From: Archaeoglobus sp. JdFR-37
GTDB taxonomy: Archaea > Halobacteriota > Archaeoglobi > Archaeoglobales > Archaeoglobaceae
Length of the DNA: 34,141 nucleotides
Direction of reading: 5' to 3'
NCBI GenBank assembly: GCA_002010215.1
Contig: MTMY01000003.1
Location: 124,001-158,141, forward strand
The position numbers and the translations under genes are program-made. Position 1 is the stretch's first letter. The number at the start of each line of letters is the position of its first letter. This document shows positions 3,215 through 33,840 of the stretch, piece after piece. Under the pieces are notes generated by a model. That model was given only the letters and a program-made list of their open reading frames with translations. It did no database searches and was not told where the DNA came from.

Positions 3215-4936
3215 ATGGCAGTTGGTGAGGTTTATCGTGTATCTGGACCACTTGTAGTGGCAGAAGGATTGAAAGCCAGAATGTACGACGTGTGCAGGGT
3301 GGGCGAAGAAGGACTGATGGGTGAAGTCGTTGGACTTGTAGGCGATAAGGTGTTGATACAGGTTTACGAAGATACCAGCGGTATAAGGCCTGGAGATAAG
3401 GTAGAAAACACAGGAATGCCCCTCAGCGTTGAACTTGGCCCAGGTTTGCTGAAGTCCATTTATGATGGGATTCAGAGGCCATTACCTGTGCTGAAGGACG
3501 CAAGCGGCGATTTCATTGGGAGAGGTATTCACGCTCCTGGGCTTGACAGAAAGACCAAGTGGGAATTCACTCCCACTGTTAAGAAGGGTGAGAAGGTAAG
3601 TGGTGGAGACATAATCGGTACGGTTCCAGAAACCGAAATCGTTGAGCACCGCATACTTGTTCCTCCAAGGGTAAACGGTGTTATAACCGAGATTTATGAG
3701 GGGAGCTTTACTGTGGATGAAACTGTAGCTGTTCTTGATAATGGCACTGAGCTGAAGCTCTATCACACTTGGCCGGTAAGAGAATCTCGCCCCTTCAGAG
3801 AGAAGCTCCCGCCAGTCGTTCCGCTCATAACTGGACAGCGCATTCTAGATACTCTCTTCCCCGTGGCAAAAGGTGGTACGGCAGCAATTCCGGGCCCCTT
3901 CGGAAGTGGCAAGACTGTCACCCAGCATCAGCTCGCAAAATGGAGTGATACGCAAATAGTGGTGTACATTGGATGTGGAGAGAGAGGTAACGAGATGACT
4001 GAAGTGCTTGAGGAATTCCCAGAGCTTGAAGACCCGCGAACCGGCAAGCCGCTGATGGAGAGAACAGTGCTCATAGCCAACACTTCTAACATGCCCGTTG
4101 CGGCAAGAGAAGCCAGCGTTTATACGGGAATGACAATTGCAGAATACTTCAGAGATATGGGTTATGACGTGGGCCTGATGGCTGACTCCACAAGCAGATG
4201 GGCGGAAGCTATGAGAGAAATTTCAGGAAGACTTGAAGAGATGCCCGGTGAAGAAGGATATCCCGCTTATCTTGCTTCTCGTCTCGCAGAATTCTATGAG
4301 AGAGCTGGCAGAGTAAGAACGTTGAGCGGAAGCATTGGGAGCGTAACAGTTATCGGTGCAGTATCTCCGCCAGGCGGAGACTTCAGTGAGCCTGTGACTC
4401 AGAACACCCTCCGTATTGTGAAGGTCTTCTGGGCTCTCGATGCCAAGTTGGCTGCAAGGAGACACTTCCCAGCCATAAACTGGCTACAAAGCTACAGCCT
4501 TTATGCTGATACCCTTAATGAGTGGTTTGTGGAGAACGTTGCTTCAGACTGGAGTGAACTGAGAACCTGGGCCATGGAGGTGCTGCAGGAGGAGGCAAGT
4601 CTGCAGGAGATTGTCCAGTTGGTTGGTAGCGATGCGTTGCCAGAGTCGCAGAGACTGCTTCTGGAAGTTGCTAGGCTCATCAGGGAGGTTTACCTACAGC
4701 AGTATGCATACCATCCTGTGGACACCTACTGTGATCCCAAGAAGCAGTATGATTTGCTCAAAGCCATTAAAGAAGTGAATGACATGTTCTTCAAGGCTCT
4801 GGAGGCCGGTAAGCTGGTTGATGAGATAATAAACGTTCCGGGCAAAGAAGAGTTTGCAAGGGCCAAGTTTGAGGAGAACTACAAAGAAGTCCTTGAGAAG
4901 GCGGTTGAAACCATGAAAAAGGCACTTCTGGGGTGA
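3215..4936 (+). CDS. atpA: A/V-type ATP synthase catalytic subunit A, no intein
   Basis: Walker [37 protein letters not shown]; start ATG 3215 or 3203. Confidence 0.99.
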
Positions 4937-6327
4937 GCTGGATGAAGGAGTACAGAACTATAAATCAAGTTGCTGGACCTCTTATTTTTGTAGAAAAGAC
5001 TGAACCTGTTGGATATGGAGAACTGGTCACAATTACCCTCCCAGATGGTTCAACCAAGAGAGGTCAGGTCCTCGATACTTCCAAAGATATCGTCATCGTT
5101 CAGGTTTTTGAGGGGACACGAGGCATCGATACTGGTTCAGCTGTTCGCTTCGTGGGGGATATAGTCAGACTGAATGTCAGCTACGACATGCTTGGAAGAA
5201 TTCTCAGCGGTTCTGGTGATCCCATTGATGGCGGGCCAAAAATAGTGCCTGAAGAGAGAAGGGAGATCATAGGTGCAGCCATCAACCCCTATGCAAGGGA
5301 ATATCCGAGGGAGTTCATCCAGACCGGAATTTCCGCCATTGATGGAATGAACACTCTGGTGAGGGGACAGAAGCTTCCCATCTTCAGTGGAAGCGGTCTG
5401 CCCCACAACGATATAGCTCTGCAAATAGCAAGACAGGCAAAGGTTAGAGGAGAGGGTGAGGAATTCGCTGTTGTATTCGCAGCCATGGGTATAACAAACG
5501 AAGAGGCACAGCACTTCATGAAGGACTTTGAGAGGACAGGAGCTCTTGAGAGGGCAGTAGTTTTCCTGAATCTCGCAAATGACCCGGCTATAGAAAGATT
5601 GCTTACACCACGTATGGCTCTAACAGCAGCAGAATTCTTGGCTTATGAGTACGATCTCCATGTTCTGGTCATCCTCACAGACATGACCAACTACTGTGAG
5701 GCTCTTAGAGAGATATCGGCTGCGAGAGAAGAGGTGCCTGGAAGAAGAGGATATCCGGGTTACATGTACACCGATCTCGCTACCATCTACGAGAGAGCTG
5801 GCCGTATAAGGGGCAGAAAGGGAACCATCACCCAGTTCCCCATCCTCACAATGCCTGGAGACGACATAACCCATCCGATTCCCGACCTTACTGGCTATAT
5901 CACAGAGGGTCAGATAGTTCTGAGCAGAGAGCTCCATGCAAAGGGCATATACCCACCCATAAACGTGCTACCCTCCCTCAGTAGACTGATGAAAGAAGGA
6001 ATTGGAGAGGGTAGGACGAGAGACGATCACGTTCAGTGGAACGACCAGATGTACGCTGCATATGCTGAGGGTGTGGATTTGCGTGGCTTGGTTGCTATAG
6101 TTGGTGAAGAGGCTTTGAGTGAGAGAGATCGCCGCTATCTGCGCTTCGCTGATGAATTCGAAAGGAGGTTCGTGCAACAGGGGAGGTATGAGGACAGAGA
6201 CATCGATTACACCCTTGATCTGGGCTGGGAGCTCCTTGCAACCCTGCCCGAGGGAGAGTTGACCAAGATCGAGAGGAAGTACATCGAGAAGTATCATCCT
6301 GTCTACAGGAAGAAAGCAACTGCTTGA
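4933..6327 (+). CDS. atpB: A/V-type ATP synthase subunit B
   Basis: [36 protein letters not shown] motifs. Confidence 0.99.
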
Positions 6328-26592: not shown

Positions 26593-26823
26593 TTAAACGA
26601 ATCTTTTAAGCCTTTCTTCATTCTCCTCATAAAACTCCCGGATGTGTCCCCTCTCCTCATCATCCGGAGTCCTTGCAAAGAATAGCTCTATAAAGGCCCA
26701 GTAATATCCGTAAAGCAGACCTTTCAAAAAGCTGTCATTTTTCTCCAGCAAAAGCTCGTTATCATTCTCAAGAATCTCAATTACCTTATTCAGCTTTCTC
26801 TCAAGAAGTGAGTCCACATTCAT
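26593..26823 (-). CDS. Hypothetical small protein
   Basis: MNVDSLLERK...; ATG overlaps the radical SAM stop (TGATG). Confidence 0.7.
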   Translation of the reverse strand: MNVDSLLERKLNKVIEILENDNELLLEKNDSFLKGLLYGYYWAFIELFFARTPDDEERGHIREFYEENEERLKRFV

Positions 26824-27812
26824 CACCCCAGCAGGTGTATATTGCCTATGTTCACATTCCTTAAATGTTTTTTCGCTACTTTGTAGCATTCAAGAACCTG
26901 ATTTCTTGGAGTTATTGGCAGGTCTCTCAGTCTATAATCGGGATGGAATATCAAAAGGGAATAAGGGATTTCGGGACTCAAACTTGCCATGAAGGAAGCT
27001 ATCCCCTCTACCTCCTCAGCATCCACGTAATAGGGAACGAGTAGCGTTGTAACCGAGAGAACCTCAGGATACTTTTCAAAGATGGCTTCAAAGTTTTTAT
27101 GGACAGGCCTATTACTTCTTCCTGTAAGGATGACGTGAAGATCTTCATTCCATGCCTTCAGATCGAATTTAACTGTCCCCCCACTCTCGCTGCTTAGTTT
27201 TGCAGCCTCCAGAGCGAGCTTTGTATTTCCTGCCCCGTTCCACTCCCAGCAGATCATGATGTCACTTCTCTTTTCAAGAGCGAGCCTGCTGAAATTCAAT
27301 GCGAAACCCATCTGGGGTTCAGGGGAACCGCCAAAGTGGCATATGCACTTCACAGTTTCATCCATTGCTCTCCTAACCATATCATCAACCGTGACTGGCG
27401 GTGCTCTGTTAACGTGCTTGTGCTGCCAATTCTGGCAGTAAAGACAGTCGAAGTTGCAGCCGTAGTAAAAGACCGCCAGATTGTAACCGAACATGCTGCT
27501 CCCCTTACAGAACCAGGCATTACAGCAGTTGGTGGGTAAAGGGTCTTTGTAAGCGTGCAGCAAAGCCCTTCTGGTAGTTGAGCGAGAGACAATTTTCCCA
27601 TCCTTCAAGAAGCGAATTCTGCAAAGCCCCTCGTCTTCAATCCTGCACTGATTGGAGCAGAGGTTGCAACTTGCCTTTTCACTACCACCAATAATCTCCA
27701 GACCCTTATGCAGAGTTTCGGCTATTTCAGCACGACTCTTTGCACAGCTCGGACAGACGGGTATGGTTTTTGATGGTCTTGGATTGTCGCAGATGATGCA
27801 CTGGAGTCCCAC
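26823..27812 (-). CDS. Radical SAM protein, PflA/AmmeMemoRadiSam-like, with N-terminal Cys clusters
   Basis: GCNFDCLYCQNW, C.LC.N.C....G.C, FGGSPEP, FDLKAW, FHPDY, V.IGN motifs. Confidence 0.9.
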   Translation of the reverse strand: MGLQCIICDNPRPSKTIPVCPSCAKSRAEIAETLHKGLEIIGGSEKASCNLCSNQCRIEDEGLCRIRFLKDGKIVSRSTTRRALLHAYKDPLPTNCCNAWFCKGSSMFGYNLAVFYYGCNFDCLYCQNWQHKHVNRAPPVTVDDMVRRAMDETVKCICHFGGSPEPQMGFALNFSRLALEKRSDIMICWEWNGAGNTKLALEAAKLSSESGGTVKFDLKAWNEDLHVILTGRSNRPVHKNFEAIFEKYPEVLSVTTLLVPYYVDAEEVEGIASFMASLSPEIPYSLLIFHPDYRLRDLPITPRNQVLECYKVAKKHLRNVNIGNIHLLG

Positions 27813-27869
27813 AAAGAATAGTTGGAAGGAAAGTAAAAAGTTTATTCTATGGTTGCTCAGCGAATCTCA

Positions 27870-28763
27870 TCACTTGATCACGAACTTCCAGTCCCTCTCT
27901 ACAATGGGCGGCGTATCCTTCACGGGGTTTCTGGAGATAAAGCGTAGGTGCTCTGGCTCTTTCAGCTTCCTCAGGTTCACTAAAATGCAGCCCGGAATTT
28001 TAACGGGGAAACCGGTTTTCTTCTGCACTTCGGCAGCTCTGGCAACGAACTCATACATACTCTCAGCCCTCTCAAAATCGAAGCCCAGAGCAGCAAGGTC
28101 ATCCATGTTCTGCCTGTAAACGGAACACGGCTGGAAGAACATCTCTTTCATACTGTATTTCGAAGCTATTTCAGCTATACCTTCTATTTCGTTATCATTT
28201 ATCCCCGGCAGGTAGATGGTTCTGACGATACCATAAATATCCGTCTCACTCAGAAGCTTTATTGCCTCGATAACTCTACCAAAGAAGTCTCCACCTGTTA
28301 TTGCGGCATAATTTGCTGCATTATCGGAATCAAGACTAACCATAACTAGATCCACTCTGTCCTCAAGAAGCGGTAAAGCCTCTTTCAGGAACACTCCATT
28401 GGTCTGGATGTCTATTCTTATGTCCCCAAATATCTGCTTCAGTCTGTCTACCACATATGCAACTTTTTCAGGATACAGAAGAGGCTCACCAAACTGGGAG
28501 ATGGTTACAGACTTCACGTTTTTAGTATCGCCATAAAAACCGGGTTTTGGGGCAACGTTAGACAGAACAGCTGGACGGGAGTAGCAGAAAACGCAGTTCA
28601 GGTTGCAGTTATGGGTAATCTCGTAAGTTGGATGGTGTTTTGGATTCGATATGCTCTCATCTATCCCCTCGCAGTGAATGCAGTGTCTTACGAAATCTAC
28701 TTTCCGAATGTACTCCCAGACATCCTGAGTGTCCAGGGCGTTCTCAGACTTCCAAGCCTCCAT
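27870..28763 (-). CDS. Radical SAM protein of unknown function
   Basis: CNLNCVFC, SQFGEPL, QTNG, PGIND motifs; extra HCIHCEG upstream of the SAM motif. Confidence 0.9.
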   Translation of the reverse strand: MEAWKSENALDTQDVWEYIRKVDFVRHCIHCEGIDESISNPKHHPTYEITHNCNLNCVFCYSRPAVLSNVAPKPGFYGDTKNVKSVTISQFGEPLLYPEKVAYVVDRLKQIFGDIRIDIQTNGVFLKEALPLLEDRVDLVMVSLDSDNAANYAAITGGDFFGRVIEAIKLLSETDIYGIVRTIYLPGINDNEIEGIAEIASKYSMKEMFFQPCSVYRQNMDDLAALGFDFERAESMYEFVARAAEVQKKTGFPVKIPGCILVNLRKLKEPEHLRFISRNPVKDTPPIVERDWKFVIK

Positions 28764-28863: not shown

Positions 28864-29346
28864 TTAAACCTTGCAACAGTCCTTTGTTAAGTCCGCCATT
28901 TGGACTTCTCTATTATCATCTCGTTCCCCAACAGTAACGCTCTCCAGTATCCTATTAATAAATTCCACGTAAAATTGCCTGCAGCACCTGCCAGACGGAT
29001 TTGTGATGAGGCAATGCCCACCATTTCCTATACCCGTCATTTCCTCCACCTGCTCAACGCTTCTGGCTCCCCTATTTATTGCTTCGATAACATCCTCCTC
29101 TGTAACCTGCTTGCAGTAGCACAACGGCTTTGGTGATCCCTTCTCCTTGAAAAATACCTTTGTCTTGACTTCTTTAACCGTGAACGTAACTGTACCGTTG
29201 AAATACACAACATGGCATTCAGGAGTGGGGCAGAAGTGGAAGTCATCGCTAATCAGGTGCCAGTATTCGGGATTGACATGGCTTCCAACTGTTATTTTCT
29301 TCACTTTCCATCCCTCTGTTCCGCAGATGGGACAAACATACTTCAT
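28864..29346 (-). CDS. Stand-alone CopZ N-terminal-type Zn/[2Fe-2S] (BFD-like) domain protein
   Basis: CPICG.EGW, FC..PEC.VVYF, PLCYC..VT, C..TNPSGRCC; no HMA domain; ends DCCKV. Confidence 0.88.
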   Translation of the reverse strand: MKYVCPICGTEGWKVKKITVGSHVNPEYWHLISDDFHFCPTPECHVVYFNGTVTFTVKEVKTKVFFKEKGSPKPLCYCKQVTEEDVIEAINRGARSVEQVEEMTGIGNGGHCLITNPSGRCCRQFYVEFINRILESVTVGERDDNREVQMADLTKDCCKV

Positions 29347-29984
29347 TTTTCCACCTCCCTGATCTGAATCCCATTATCTGACAGTATCGTAACGACATAG
29401 GGCTTCGGCACCTTTGCCATTATCTCCTGCGGACTGACCAACGATGGGTTGTAAATTACCACAGCCACACCTTTAGCATAGCTGACCTCAGCTTCCATAA
29501 CTCCCTCTGTCTGCAAAAGAGAAGCTCTTATGGCTTCTGCACAGCTTTCACACGTCATACCATCAACTTTCAGCCTGAGTTCCCTCAGCTCTGAGGCTGA
29601 ATTGACGTTAGCGCTGACATCTGTTCCCTCAGATATCGTGGCGGTGACATAGGGTATTATGGCCAAATTGATAACACCAAAGATGGTGGTGAAGGCGAGA
29701 AGGGTTGTGGTTATGAATTTGCTCTCGCTCCTCAACAACTGTTTATAGCTACAGGCACACTGCTTCGCCTTCCTTCGCAGATGGTTCGCGATGGAAAGCA
29801 GAACAAAAGCTATGCCTGCAAGGATAAAGTAGTTTCTGTAGGCTCCCATGGAAGCTGCTAAGCTGAAATTGCCGATGCCAATGAGAAGGAGAAGCAGGGA
29901 GCCGAGACAGCATGCAGACGAGATGAGGCCACCAACTACACCTCTTGTCGTTCCACCGATGCTGCTGATGTCCATTACCATCAC
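29343..29984 (-). CDS. MerT-like transporter fused to a C-terminal HMA (MerP-like) domain
   Basis: SACC in TM1, YR.YF before TM2, CAC in the loop, third TM, then GMTCESC. Confidence 0.85.
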   Translation of the reverse strand: MMVMDISSIGGTTRGVVGGLISSACCLGSLLLLLIGIGNFSLAASMGAYRNYFILAGIAFVLLSIANHLRRKAKQCACSYKQLLRSESKFITTTLLAFTTIFGVINLAIIPYVTATISEGTDVSANVNSASELRELRLKVDGMTCESCAEAIRASLLQTEGVMEAEVSYAKGVAVVIYNPSLVSPQEIMAKVPKPYVVTILSDNGIQIREVEK

Positions 29985-30328
29985 ACCACCTTTTGAAGGG
30001 TTTTCTGGCCAACATCCTCTTCCTTCAGAATCCCGCAGCTGATGAGCTTCTTCTGATATTCAGTCATGTAATCTTCAAGGTCATCCAGAATTTTGCTCAC
30101 TATCTCACTCATCCTGTAAATCCTGTTTTTCCCCCTCTGTTCTACCTCAACGAAACCACAGTTGAGGAGGCATTTCAGGTTGTGGGAAATTCTGCTCTGC
30201 TCGTACCCAAGCCTGTGACATATCTCAGATACGCTCATCTCTCCTTCTCTTCTGAGGAGCGTCACAATGTCGAAGCGGGTTCTGTTAGACAGTACACTCG
30301 CAAAATGTTTCCATGATTCATACATCAT
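29981..30328 (-). CDS. ArsR/SmtB family transcriptional regulator
   Basis: LSNRTRFDI, SVSEI...QSRISHNL.CL..CGFV...GK.RIY; C-terminal SCG. Confidence 0.92.
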   Translation of the reverse strand: MMYESWKHFASVLSNRTRFDIVTLLRREGEMSVSEICHRLGYEQSRISHNLKCLLNCGFVEVEQRGKNRIYRMSEIVSKILDDLEDYMTEYQKKLISCGILKEEDVGQKTLQKVV

Positions 30329-30358
30329 ATGATGCCAATGTCATTTGTTAGTATATAA
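30326..30358 (-). promoter_or_regulatory. TATA box plus inverted-repeat operator for the ArsR-merT/HMA-copZ unit
   Basis: Minus-strand TTATATAC at 30351-30358; CATATGA-N8-TCATTTG (30326-30347) between TATA and start codon. Confidence 0.6.
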
Positions 30359-30469: not shown

Positions 30470-31054
30470 ATGGGTGAAATATACCAGAAACCCGTCAGGG
30501 TGAAGAGTGTATTGACTATTGACTCTGAAACAGCCAGAGCCCTCGAAGACCCAATCAGAGTAGCTATACTGGAGATTCTCTCAAAAAAGAGTTGTTCCAT
30601 TGTGGAAATTGCCGAAGAATTGAAAAAAATCGGGATAAGAAAAGCTCTCACAACCATTCGACATCATGTTGATATATTGAAAAAAGCAGGATTAATTGAG
30701 CTTACCAAGCTTGAGGACGTGAAAGGAGGAGTTCTGAAGTATTACGCTTCCAATACCAGAGTCCTCCACCAGAACCTGCCTGAAGGGTTCGAAGAGAGGA
30801 TGAAAGAGGCAATAAAGGATGCTAAGGTGGGAATTGAGAAAATTGTAGATGGGCTGGGTGAGAAATACAGAAAAGAGATTCTTGAGGTGGCTAACAGCCT
30901 GAAGCACTGCCCCTACTGCAGCGATGAGCACTTCGTGGAGTACGTTGTAGTTCAGATTCTTAACAGGGCAATTGCTGAGCTTGTCGAAGAGGAGAAGATG
31001 GCTGCTTTGCTGGGTAAAGAGGGGGGTGAAAATGCAGGAAGTGGAGGTGCATGA
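30470..31054 (+). CDS. ArsR-like winged-helix regulator with C-terminal HCPYC..EH motif
   Basis: ALEDPIRVAILEIL, TTIRHHVDILKKAGLI, KYY; overlaps the ATPase start. Confidence 0.88.
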   Translation: MGEIYQKPVRVKSVLTIDSETARALEDPIRVAILEILSKKSCSIVEIAEELKKIGIRKALTTIRHHVDILKKAGLIELTKLEDVKGGVLKYYASNTRVLHQNLPEGFEERMKEAIKDAKVGIEKIVDGLGEKYRKEILEVANSLKHCPYCSDEHFVEYVVVQILNRAIAELVEEEKMAALLGKEGGENAGSGGA

Positions 31055-33236
31055 AAGCAGAATCCTCAGACATCACGTTAAAATAGGAGGGCTGGCTTGT
31101 TCTTTCTGTGTAAGCACCATAAAGAAGGCTCTCTCTGGAGTAAAGGGAGTAAAGAACGTCAGCGTCTCCCTTGTACACGAAGAGGCTCTCGTCGAATACG
31201 ATCCAGCGCTAATTGAACCGTGGGAGATTGATGAGGTGCTTATAAAGCTTGGTTATACTGTCAGAGATCCCAAGAAACTCATGAGCTTTGAAGAGGAGGA
31301 GGCTGAAGTCATACGGGAGAAGAGAAGGCTAATTATCGCAGGTATTATCGTTGGAATCTCGTTATCTATGATGGTTTCCATGTGGATAGGGATGAAGAAG
31401 TGGTGGTTTCCCTATGCCATGTTTTTCCTGGCTCTCCTGATGGTTTTCGTCTTTGGGTGGCCTATACTCAAGATGGCGTATTACTCCCTCAGACGGGGAA
31501 TTTTGAACCAGCACGTTTTAATGGAATTCGCTGCCTTCAGCGGCATAGCTGGCGGTTTGTTGGGTTATGTATTCCCGGAGTTTCCAAGGGCTGATTTCTT
31601 CGCAGTCTCAATTTTCGTCACTGGATACCACATCCTGTCGGGCTATACATCCCTTCTCGTGAGAACAAAAAGCTCACAGGCTGTGAGAAGACTCCTATCT
31701 CTTCAGCCTCCAACGGCAAGGGTTGTGGTGGAGGGAGAAGAGAGAATAGTTCCTGTAGAACGACTTAAGAAGGGAGATATCGTGAAGGTTAAGCCCGGCG
31801 AGACAATTCCGGTGGATGGAGTCGTTGTCCAGGGAGAAAGCGGAGTCAACGAAAGCATAGTTACTGGCGAGTCTCTCCCGGTGGAAAAGAAGTTGGAAGA
31901 TGAGGTCATTTCGGGCTCGATAAACCTAACGGGAGCTCTCCTGATAGAGGTAACCAGAGTTGGAGAGGAGAGCTTCCTTTACAGAGTTGCCAAGTATGTG
32001 GAGGAGGCAAGGGCTTTAAAACCCAGTATTTTGCAGCTTGTTGATAGAATTCTGAAGTACTATGTCCCCTTCGTGATTTTCTTTGCAGTTCTGGGATTTA
32101 TCGTCTGGACTGTAGGTTTATGGATTTTAACTGGAGAACCTGACATCAAAAAGGCCATCTATGCTTCGCTGGCAGCCCTTGTAATGGGATATCCCTGTGC
32201 TCTGGGCATGTCCACACCTCTGGCAATGATAAGGGGTGGTGGGGAAGCAGCGATTAGAGGAATACTCATGAGAAGCGGCGAAGCATTTCAGGTTTTCAAG
32301 GACGTGAAGAAGGTTGTTCTCGACAAAACCGGTACGCTGACGGAAGGTGAGCCGGAAATCGCTGAAATCAGGGTTTTCGAGGGAAATGAGCGCTATTTGC
32401 TTGCTCTGGCTGCATCTCTTGAAAACAATTCGGAGCACCCCATAGCTAGAGCGATAATCAAGGAGGCTGAAAGAAAGAGAGTATCCATCAGAGAGGCCGA
32501 TAATTTCAGAAGTATGGCTGGATTTGGAGTTGAAGGAGTAATAGATGGTAAAAAGGTAGTTATTGGCAGCGTGAGGCTGATGGAGGAGAAAGGGGTGGAT
32601 GTTAGTGATTTCATTGATGACATAAAGGAAATGGAGGAGAAAGGGCAAACCGTTGTCCTTATGGCAGTGAATGGCAGGTTGATCGGTGTGATGGGCATAA
32701 CTGACAGGATAAGGCCTGATGCGAGAGATGCGATTGAGGAAATGAAAAGGCTTGGACTACAACCTGTGATGCTTACAGGGGATGACGAGAGGGTCGGAAG
32801 GGCTGTTGCGGAGAAGCTTGGCATTAAAGAGGTTATTGCAAACGTTTTGCCTGAACAGAAAGCTGAACACATAAGGATGCTTCAGAGAGAAGGCTACAGG
32901 GTTGCCATGGTTGGAGATGGGATAAACGATGCTCCAGCCCTTATGCAGGCCGATGTTGGTGTAGCAATTGGAAGCGGCACAGACATCGCCATAGAGAGCG
33001 CAGACATAATAATCATAGGCAGCAGACTTTCAGCCCTTCTTGATGCCTACAATATAGCAAAGATGAGCTACAACAAGACCAAGCAGAATCTGGCCATAGC
33101 TTTCTCATTCAATGGTATTGGCGTCCCCCTTGCTGTGATGGGCATCGTCCACCCCATCTGGGCAATGATGGCCATGGTGGCAAGCGTGTCGCTGGTTCTG
33201 TTCAACTCTTTCGCAACAAGATTGCTGCAGGTGTGA
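31032..33236 (+). CDS. Heavy-metal P1B-type ATPase with N-terminal HMA domain and YPC motif
   Basis: GLACSFC, TGES, GYPCALG, DKTGT, SEHP, TGD, GDGINDAPAL; ATG 31032 after GGGGTGA SD. Confidence 0.95.
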   Translation: MQEVEVHESRILRHHVKIGGLACSFCVSTIKKALSGVKGVKNVSVSLVHEEALVEYDPALIEPWEIDEVLIKLGYTVRDPKKLMSFEEEEAEVIREKRRLIIAGIIVGISLSMMVSMWIGMKKWWFPYAMFFLALLMVFVFGWPILKMAYYSLRRGILNQHVLMEFAAFSGIAGGLLGYVFPEFPRADFFAVSIFVTGYHILSGYTSLLVRTKSSQAVRRLLSLQPPTARVVVEGEERIVPVERLKKGDIVKVKPGETIPVDGVVVQGESGVNESIVTGESLPVEKKLEDEVISGSINLTGALLIEVTRVGEESFLYRVAKYVEEARALKPSILQLVDRILKYYVPFVIFFAVLGFIVWTVGLWILTGEPDIKKAIYASLAALVMGYPCALGMSTPLAMIRGGGEAAIRGILMRSGEAFQVFKDVKKVVLDKTGTLTEGEPEIAEIRVFEGNERYLLALAASLENNSEHPIARAIIKEAERKRVSIREADNFRSMAGFGVEGVIDGKKVVIGSVRLMEEKGVDVSDFIDDIKEMEEKGQTVVLMAVNGRLIGVMGITDRIRPDARDAIEEMKRLGLQPVMLTGDDERVGRAVAEKLGIKEVIANVLPEQKAEHIRMLQREGYRVAMVGDGINDAPALMQADVGVAIGSGTDIAIESADIIIIGSRLSALLDAYNIAKMSYNKTKQNLAIAFSFNGIGVPLAVMGIVHPIWAMMAMVASVSLVLFNSFATRLLQV

Positions 33237-33300
33237 GGAAAAATTGAAACCTTCAGAAGCTTTAAATGTTAATATGTATAAATAAGTATGGTGATGGATT

Positions 33301-33840
33301 ATGGAGAAGAAAGATAAAGTAGTTCTAGTCGTTGCAATTCTTGCAGCTTTTGCCATAGGTCTTAGCATTGGAAACATGTTCTGGATGAGCAGATATCAGA
33401 CATATCCTTCCCAGACCCCATATCAGCCGATGATGGGGCCAATGCAGGGATACCAGCAGCCCATGATGGGTTATTCTCCACAGCCCGCCCAGTACAAATC
33501 AAATGGCGAACTGATTTTCATGACCGGTGTTAATGAGAAAGGGGAGAGAATACCATTCGTTGGAGGTCCTCAGTGGCTCTATATGCACGGCGGTGGATGT
33601 GCCAGCTGTCATGGAACTGACGGAAAGGGCGGCATATATCCCATGATGTGTGGTGTAAAAACACCTGATATCAGATATTCGACGCTTACCGAAGAGCACG
33701 GGATGACAGAAGAAGACATAAAGAAGGCCATAACCCAAGGCGTAGATGATGAGGGCGAGGAGCTGGATTACTGCATGCCAAGATGGCAGATGAGTGAGAA
33801 GGACCTGAATGATGTGATAGAGTATCTGAAGGAGTTATAA
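33301..33840 (+). CDS. Membrane-anchored monoheme c-type cytochrome with Gln/Met/Pro-rich linker
   Basis: N-terminal hydrophobic helix, CASCH heme motif, distal MPRW methionine, DVIEYL terminal helix. Confidence 0.88.
   Translation: MEKKDKVVLVVAILAAFAIGLSIGNMFWMSRYQTYPSQTPYQPMMGPMQGYQQPMMGYSPQPAQYKSNGELIFMTGVNEKGERIPFVGGPQWLYMHGGGCASCHGTDGKGGIYPMMCGVKTPDIRYSTLTEEHGMTEEDIKKAITQGVDDEGEELDYCMPRWQMSEKDLNDVIEYLKEL

Follow-up and report, generated by a model that had tools for sequence, protein, structure and literature searches.

What becomes of a metal ion once a mercury-type importer has brought it into an archaeal cell is the question posed by a small operon that encodes an ArsR-family repressor, a MerT-like membrane protein fused to an HMA domain, and a stand-alone relative of the N-terminal Zn/[2Fe-2S] domain of CopZ. 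A preliminary description, made from the 34,141-nucleotide stretch of DNA analysed here (the window), regarded the operon as a mer-like uptake unit with no merA and proposed a MerA-independent route of detoxification or copper uptake. We lean towards a different answer, in which the operon provides sensing, uptake and hand-off, one half of an archaeal mercury resistance system whose reductase gene, merA, lies on another contig.

The window forms the end of contig C1 in a 1.97-Mb genome (G000; 52 contigs, 94.5% complete) that is an Archaeoglobi genome, judged by its closest relatives. The three-gene unit first described is confirmed as three overlapping open reading frames (ORFs) on the minus strand (window 28864-30328). 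ATGA coupling had been assigned to all the genes; it holds for the merT/Fe-S junction, and the arsR/merT junction is instead GTGA or TGATG. GC3 of the trio (0.51-0.58) equals that of the housekeeping neighbours (0.53), thus giving no sign of recent foreign origin. The features are, in window coordinates:

30352..30358, minus strand: TATA-box-like element recognised by sequence, about 24-30 nt upstream of the arsR start; its function and a leaderless transcript are predicted
30329..30344, no strand assigned: predicted ArsR operator 1, a palindrome ATGA-N8-TCAT that abuts the arsR start codon
30313..30328, no strand assigned: predicted ArsR operator 2, a second ATGA-N8-TCAT that forms the first 16 coding bases of arsR
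29981..30328, minus strand: arsR, ArsR/SmtB-family repressor of 115 aa (NF033788) with a CmtR-like soft-metal site
29343..29984, minus strand: merT-HMA (MerTP-like) fusion, 213 aa from GTG or 211 aa from the ATG at 29978
28864..29346, minus strand: stand-alone CopZ N-terminal Zn/[2Fe-2S] protein of 160 aa (Pfam, 2HU9 match)

A divergent unit (window 30470-33840) encodes an ArsR-like HTH protein with CPYC (30470-31054), a P1B ATPase in which YPC replaces CPC in the metal helix and which is without the canonical YN (30972-33236), and a membrane-anchored cytochrome c that closes the unit (33301-33840). The order of these three genes is the same in G001, and the cytochrome c gene adjoins the Fe-S gene in G015 and G083. 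On the other side, two uncharacterised radical SAM genes (window 26823-28763) share the strand of the trio and lie downstream, separated from it by 100 bp; the pair was not found beside the trio in the relatives examined. NicO-type nickel transporters adjoin arsR in G039 and G088, and ORFs like the SBF/ACR3-like permease of locus L030 lie beside merA in G088 and G087 (L030:7282-8064, L050:2176-2976, L060:2139-3104 and L067:434-1486 cover the nickel transporters and these permease ORFs).

The transporter carries the features expected of a MerT-MerP fusion. We identified three long helices by hydropathy and in a structure model, predicted to lie in the membrane, with the CC pair in helix 1 (C25/C26) and the CAC pair in the loop (C76/C78) that had been taken as MerT hallmarks, and a C-terminal GMTCESC HMA domain (C145/C148; all in the 213-aa frame). 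The helix-1 CC is conserved in 12 of 13 aligned MerT-HMA proteins, and the loop CxC and HMA CxxC in all 13. HMA scores 47.5 bits (Pfam cut-off 24.8) and MerT (PF02411) 24.5 bits, below its cut-off of 32.9; the best NCBIfam match is the MerTP fusion NF033556, at 97.8 bits and below the cut-off of 180. In the structure model the HMA domain has a pLDDT of about 90 and the membrane part is of low confidence (43-75). The loop between helices 2 and 3 contains seven Lys/Arg residues along with the CxC pair, and by the positive-inside rule this loop and the N-terminus are predicted to face inward and the HMA domain outward, which supports the orientation originally proposed. A profile search for relatives across 1.84 billion representatives was dominated by multi-HMA ATPases; among 21 hits that were rescanned, two (P0063 and P0126) have an extra cupredoxin domain. 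The MerT-HMA fusion architecture is common among distant relatives, and the protein had no match on plasmids at E 1e-8.

For the third protein, both zf_CopZ and Fer2_BFD are above the Pfam cut-off, and there is no Pfam match to HMA. The identification with the CopZ N-terminal domain is borne out by matches to PDB 2HU9, from A. fulgidus CopZ, in sequence (E 4e-36, 45% identity) and in fold (Foldseek E 3e-13, TM 0.75 by target). All nine core Cys of A. fulgidus-type CopZ are kept, of which we take four to bind zinc and four to bind the [2Fe-2S] cluster; the A. fulgidus domain reportedly reduces Cu(II). An acidic tail, predicted to be disordered (residues 145-156, pLDDT <50), ends in the Cys-Cys (DCCKV) that had drawn attention to the protein. 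Scores are below the cut-offs of NF047645 (86 versus 100) and NF045877 (116 versus 190), and a protein atlas returned known family names only. Complex prediction for the Fe-S protein with the MerT membrane part, a low-confidence region of the model, gave a score of 0.02.

In a tree of 185 such domains (FastTree, 138 columns, midpoint root), the tailed forms of the Archaeoglobi group on a single branch with support 0.88 (26 tips, of which 23 scored as tailed), neighboured by tail-less forms without metal context in metagenomes. The metagenome survey covered 47 of 56 loci (L120-L166), with nine BFD-only matches excluded; L120 is identical to the window. Outside the Archaeoglobi-like group, these loci had no mer gene when compared with the reference set, and a scan of 62 metagenome neighbours gave no mer or HMA family.

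We searched the whole genome for a reductase. The reported lack of merA is true of the 34-kb window only: an intact merA is present on another contig (C10:22304-23695; 463 aa; TIGR02053 571 bits, cut-off 454), a contig of 59 kb on which archaeal housekeeping genes surround it. The best matches of its product are solved mercuric reductases, and in alignment with these it has the redox CxxxxC, equivalents of Tyr264/Tyr605 and a C-terminal LSCCAE tail. The redox Cys pair, the Tyr equivalents and the C-terminal Cys pair are the criteria for MerA in the available portion of PMC8261052, which also notes MerA in two Archaeoglobus genomes. The NmerA domain is absent from the G000 protein. Orthologues of this merA with 77-86% identity occur in G003, G083, G087 and G088. 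The second-best MerA match, on contig C14, was rejected as a merA (325 bits, 35% identity, below the MerA cut-off). Searches of G000 with tblastn gave no match to merB, merF or a second merT; two MerR-family matches have 31-34% identity. Rhodanese and thioredoxin-like genes follow merA (G000:C10:23842-25091; L001:3027-4276). In G039 a split rhodanese copy lies about 1.3 kb from arsR, which hints that both G000 loci derive from one metal island. Given a merA elsewhere in G000, the resistance system is likely a split one, with the trio as its mercury-uptake half.

The importer and merA also occur together across the Archaeoglobi. Among 96 genomes, the MerT-HMA gene is present in seven (the G087 copy is split by a frameshift) and merA in nine (three copies are cut by contig ends). 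Six of the seven genomes with MerT-HMA have merA, versus three of the 89 without it (Fisher p 6e-7, a value inflated by kinship). Importer and reductase genes are on different contigs in G000, and they share a tight operon in two relatives: arsR-merT/HMA-FeS-merA in G038 and arsR-merT/HMA-merA in G037. The latter has no Fe-S gene, which is thus dispensable there, a point against our preferred reading. G001, of the same genus as G000, has the trio plus merA-merB on another contig, with merB directly behind merA (L043:1131-1826); its merA is only 45% identical to that of G000, so that there are two merA lineages within one genus. In G149, from another family, arsR, two unclassified ORFs, a tailed Fe-S gene, one ORF and merA stand in a row. 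The co-occurrence of importer and merA, together with the single operon of G038, makes delivery of Hg(II) from the unit to a MerA encoded in trans the most likely case, and MerA independence is left unsupported for G000. Import by MerT without a reductase is harmful, and an importer that tracks merA is as expected on that ground.

We identified zf_CopZ in 18 Archaeoglobi genomes: 13 have tailed stand-alone forms, four have HMA-fused forms and one (G006) has a form from the bacterial branch. Six of the 13 genomes with the tailed gene have merA. Of the other seven, one (G086; 92% complete, 150 contigs) has an intact importer and indeed the whole trio, with merA not found, and another (G039; 100% complete) has kept arsR and the Fe-S gene and lost the membrane part by deletion. 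The remaining five, three of them single-contig assemblies, have the Fe-S gene alone. Both G086 and these five genomes count against the preferred reading, and in its favour is the finding of an intact importer in just one of the seven. A more sensitive search for the MerA C-terminus in five of the seven merA-less genomes recovered only paralogues of 26-35% identity.

Retention of the Fe-S gene without importer or merA raises the alternative that ArsR and MerT-HMA are a mer uptake module, and that the Fe-S protein serves more generally in soft-metal stress, as a thiol sink or by protecting Fe-S and Zn sites, with no direct hand-off. Consistent with this, the domain occurs in 18 of 52 genomes of family f4, with merA in 0 of 52 among the best three candidates per genome, and Bacillales plasmids have merR-FeS pairs without a transporter. 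Yet the domain has been covalently fused, repeatedly, to the cytoplasmic end of MerT and, in both orders, to MerB, which argues for proximity-dependent transfer, and we regard a general stress role as highly unlikely.

These fusions were identified in a search for longer Fe-S relatives, in which 7999 candidates of lengths 358-2000 were scored (one query row held HMA; MerT and MerB were not in the query). The long relatives form 63 clusters, 59 with Pfam MerT and HMA and four with MerB. The order is Fe-S, membrane, HMA in 57 clusters, according to profiles made for this analysis, and the Fe-S domain of the triple fusions is predicted to be on the cytoplasmic side. None of the 63 is fused to MerA or a P-type ATPase. 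The MerB-Zn/[2Fe-2S] fusions are P0206, P0213, P0215 and P0255; P0206 includes members named from Bacillus. The 59 clusters strengthen the proposed coupling of the Fe-S protein to MerT-type import, and MerT-HMA and MerB as partners point to mercury over copper. The fusion proteins sit on the other main branch of the domain tree, so recruitment to mer-type genes may have happened at least twice (given the midpoint root), and for the window protein the fusions are evidence by analogy. By that analogy, we consider it likely to be a cytoplasmic Hg(II) acceptor, as yet uncharacterised, and an overlooked mercury-handling partner, because many bacteria have relatives of it joined to mercury transporters and lyases. 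A member of the bacterial branch occurs within the Archaeoglobi: the G006 Fe-S gene (L037:5833-6468) is 67-71% identical to the N-terminal part of the bacterial triple fusions and stops where MerT would begin. No merA was found in G006, and a MerT remnant behind the gene was unsupported by tblastn.

Plasmids provide further contexts for the domain. Searches returned 16 and 32 records; the 22 regions viewed were picked to give a wide spread, one of them because of its merA label, and 21 of these are annotated. The context is mer-like (MerR-family, MerT/MerF or merA-merB) in 14 of the 21, and in 12 the Fe-S gene is behind a MerR-family regulator. These 12 are five annotated merR-FeS pairs (three tested regulators pass the Hg-MerR cut-off), three regions with Deinococcus regulators below that cut-off, two Methylomonas merR-merT-merP-FeS regions and two cyanobacterial merR-like-merF-FeS regions, one frameshifted. 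The other regions are one Fe-S-MerT-HMA triple fusion mislabelled merA, one gene 1.5 kb from merA-merB, three P1B ATPase clusters, two genes near arsR-CDF genes and two without metal context. Two-gene merR-FeS units without an adjoining transporter or reductase were seen in L184, L186, L190, L200 and L204 (about 3500-5500). QDV81057.1 (L198:4998-6233), annotated as a mercuric reductase, is a fusion of Fe-S domain, MerT and HMA without a MerA domain. In most aligned bacterial Fe-S proteins the Cys-Cys arm is N-terminal. The source of Methylomonas EFPC1 is a mercury-contaminated stream, described in a paper that does not mention mer genes (PMC8188343).

Some of these arrangements suggest that the Fe-S protein could itself be the end point, reducing or permanently sequestering imported Hg(II) in a MerA-free resistance, with merA a parallel route in G000. 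The Methylomonas plasmids have the Fe-S gene in the usual place of merA, two cyanobacterial plasmids pair it with merF, and the triple fusion is found on a planctomycete plasmid; none of these five plasmid records has merA. The MerB fusions and the G086 trio without a detected merA fit as well, as do the 895 genomes that encode MerB without MerA, according to the accessible text of PMC8261052. Still, the merA counts (two of the 15 plasmid records searched) cover plasmids, not host chromosomes, and a merA distant from merR is known in cyanobacteria, at least from the part of PMC6741143 available. In the Archaeoglobi, moreover, the importer tracks merA and decays without it even where the Fe-S gene stays. 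A one-electron [2Fe-2S] centre is also poorly suited to two-electron reduction of thiol-bound Hg(II). On balance we consider an end-point role unlikely.

In a more far-reaching form of the same idea, the Cys-Cys-armed CopZ N-terminal Zn/[2Fe-2S] domain would be a mer protein that has escaped recognition. Recruited on at least two occasions (in the Archaeoglobi, and in a bacterial branch where it is joined to MerT-MerP or MerB), it would accept Hg(II) at the cytoplasmic face of an importer or lyase and reduce it via its Fe-S cluster: a miniature, flavin-free mercuric reductase. We think this doubtful; if true, such a domain could explain genomes that are positive for MerT or MerB and negative for MerA.

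Other metals have to be weighed as well. The unit could handle copper, silver or cadmium in concert with the divergent pair of ArsR and P1B ATPase; in this reading the Fe-S domain would reduce Cu(II), a role proposed for A. fulgidus CopZ. The ATPase operon is divergent from the trio in both G000 and G001, no other CopZ was found in G000, homologues of the Fe-S gene follow arsR/cadC-P1B ATPase genes in two of the 21 plasmid regions (with a third P1B cluster besides), and cupredoxin domains occur in the two MerT-HMA relatives noted above. However, the two genomes of this genus are the only ones in which the ATPase adjoins the trio, and the lack of any ATPase fusion among the 63 long relatives and the co-occurrence of merA with the importer also speak against such a role. 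By established mer logic, an importer under a repressor that metal excess lifts is sensible only with a detoxifying sink. A copper, silver or cadmium role is distinctly improbable in our judgement.

The repressor is compatible with a soft-metal signal. It scores 72.7 bits with NF033788 (cut-off 55) and 29.4 with the CmtR-type NF047906, far below the cut-off of 150, and its close orthologues occur in 6 of 401 genomes of the phylum, every one from the Archaeoglobi. C37, C53, C57 and C98 are invariant in all eight aligned orthologues. Alignment to SmtB, CzrA and NmtR places C53 and C57 at the end of the recognition helix (helix 4); C98 is in the tail, so that the two helix-4 Cys and the C-terminal tail Cys of a CmtR-type site are present. 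Sites of this type sense Cd(II) too, which counts against a mercury-only reading. The definition of the CmtR site as two helix-4 Cys plus a tail Cys follows the available text of PMC11672702.

Operator 1 ends exactly at the arsR start codon in all seven arsR loci, with a variable spacer. Operator 2 is likewise present in all seven; its Ser codon is TCA in each, and protein constraint may be partly responsible for its conservation. Among the 2599 ATG-started ORFs of G000, arsR alone has ATGA-N8-TCAT at the start-codon position, and an AT-rich box lies at a similar distance upstream in the seven loci compared. The tandem palindrome at the start of arsR suggests that the operon is autoregulated and its transcript leaderless. 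Elsewhere in the genome the operator profile has other high-scoring sites. Before G000 merA the profile score is -2.5, a level reached by 0.6% of genome positions, and no shared operator precedes the orphan merA of G000, G003, G083 or G088. In the preliminary description, a co-regulated merA elsewhere that accounts for the transporter was to tell against MerA independence; a merA does exist elsewhere, and its co-regulation is unsupported, in that the operator of the trio is lacking before it in G000.

Returning to the split mercury resistance system that we favour, gene content and associations were observed, and from these we infer every transfer step of the following scheme. An ArsR dimer on the two ATGA-N8-TCAT boxes would keep its own operon repressed, and binding of Hg(II) or a similar soft metal to C53/C57/C98 would lift this repression. 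The outer HMA domain would then capture Hg(II) in the manner of MerP, and the helix-1 CC and loop CxC would relay it inward in the manner of MerT. In the cytoplasm, the Zn/[2Fe-2S] protein may accept Hg(II) on its flexible Cys-Cys tail, buffer it, and deliver it to the C-terminal Cys pair of the NmerA-less MerA, which is probably expressed independently and would reduce Hg(II) to Hg(0). Our guess is that the Fe-S cluster may keep the tail thiols reduced.

If this scheme is correct, archaeal mer systems, in which a 2012 survey saw hardly any membrane importers (mer transporters absent from archaea except for one merP, in the available text of PMC3466566), gain such an importer and a split layout that places merA in trans. 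The Fe-S protein, soluble, of 16-18 kDa and with a homologue of solved structure, becomes a candidate to act in the cytoplasm between MerT or MerB on one side and MerA on the other, and potentially an answer to how MerB-only genomes, as reported in the accessible portion of PMC8261052, cope with Hg(II). In literature outside subscription journals and supplements, the CopZ N-terminal Zn/[2Fe-2S] domain was not found as a mer component.

Comparison with known systems places the parts of this operon close to described families. The transporter resembles the MerT/MerP module and the MerTP fusion (NF033556; also NF045683, MerT/CopZ fusion) in its three helices, helix-1 CC, inner-loop Cys pair, GMTCxxC HMA domain and association with merA; it differs from MerTP in its score below the cut-off, the CxC form of its loop pair, its archaeal host and, in G000, an unlinked merA. 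The Fe-S protein shares the fold and core Cys of the A. fulgidus CopZ N-terminal domain, but a disordered acidic Cys-Cys tail replaces HMA and the gene is behind a MerT fusion, not that of a copper chaperone. It is a stand-alone Zn/[2Fe-2S] domain of the same superfamily as NF047645 (CopZ_Nterm_CC, putative iron-sulfur cluster-binding metallochaperone) and NF045877 (Csac_0668 family), forms that are catalogued without a mercury role in NCBIfam and in the available text of PMC13188914 and PMC4510573. NF047645 members, like the window protein, have a terminal Cys-Cys arm, and they sit behind MerR/MerT/MerF; unlike them, the window protein has its arm at the C-terminus rather than the N-terminus seen in aligned members, belongs to a separate branch and is below both cut-offs. 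ArsR regulators of mer operons are known from archaea, Bacteroidetes and Streptomyces (PMC3466566, in the part available), and the repressor is like CmtR-type proteins in its two helix-4 Cys and tail Cys. The unit is also reminiscent of the ArsR-run mer operons found in Streptomyces lividans and in Sulfolobus (arsR, TRASH chaperone, merA), with control by ArsR, not MerR, and a small cytoplasmic Cys-rich protein beside an NmerA-less MerA. It departs from them in having a membrane importer, in the Zn/[2Fe-2S] nature of its candidate chaperone, and in allowing merA to be located in trans.
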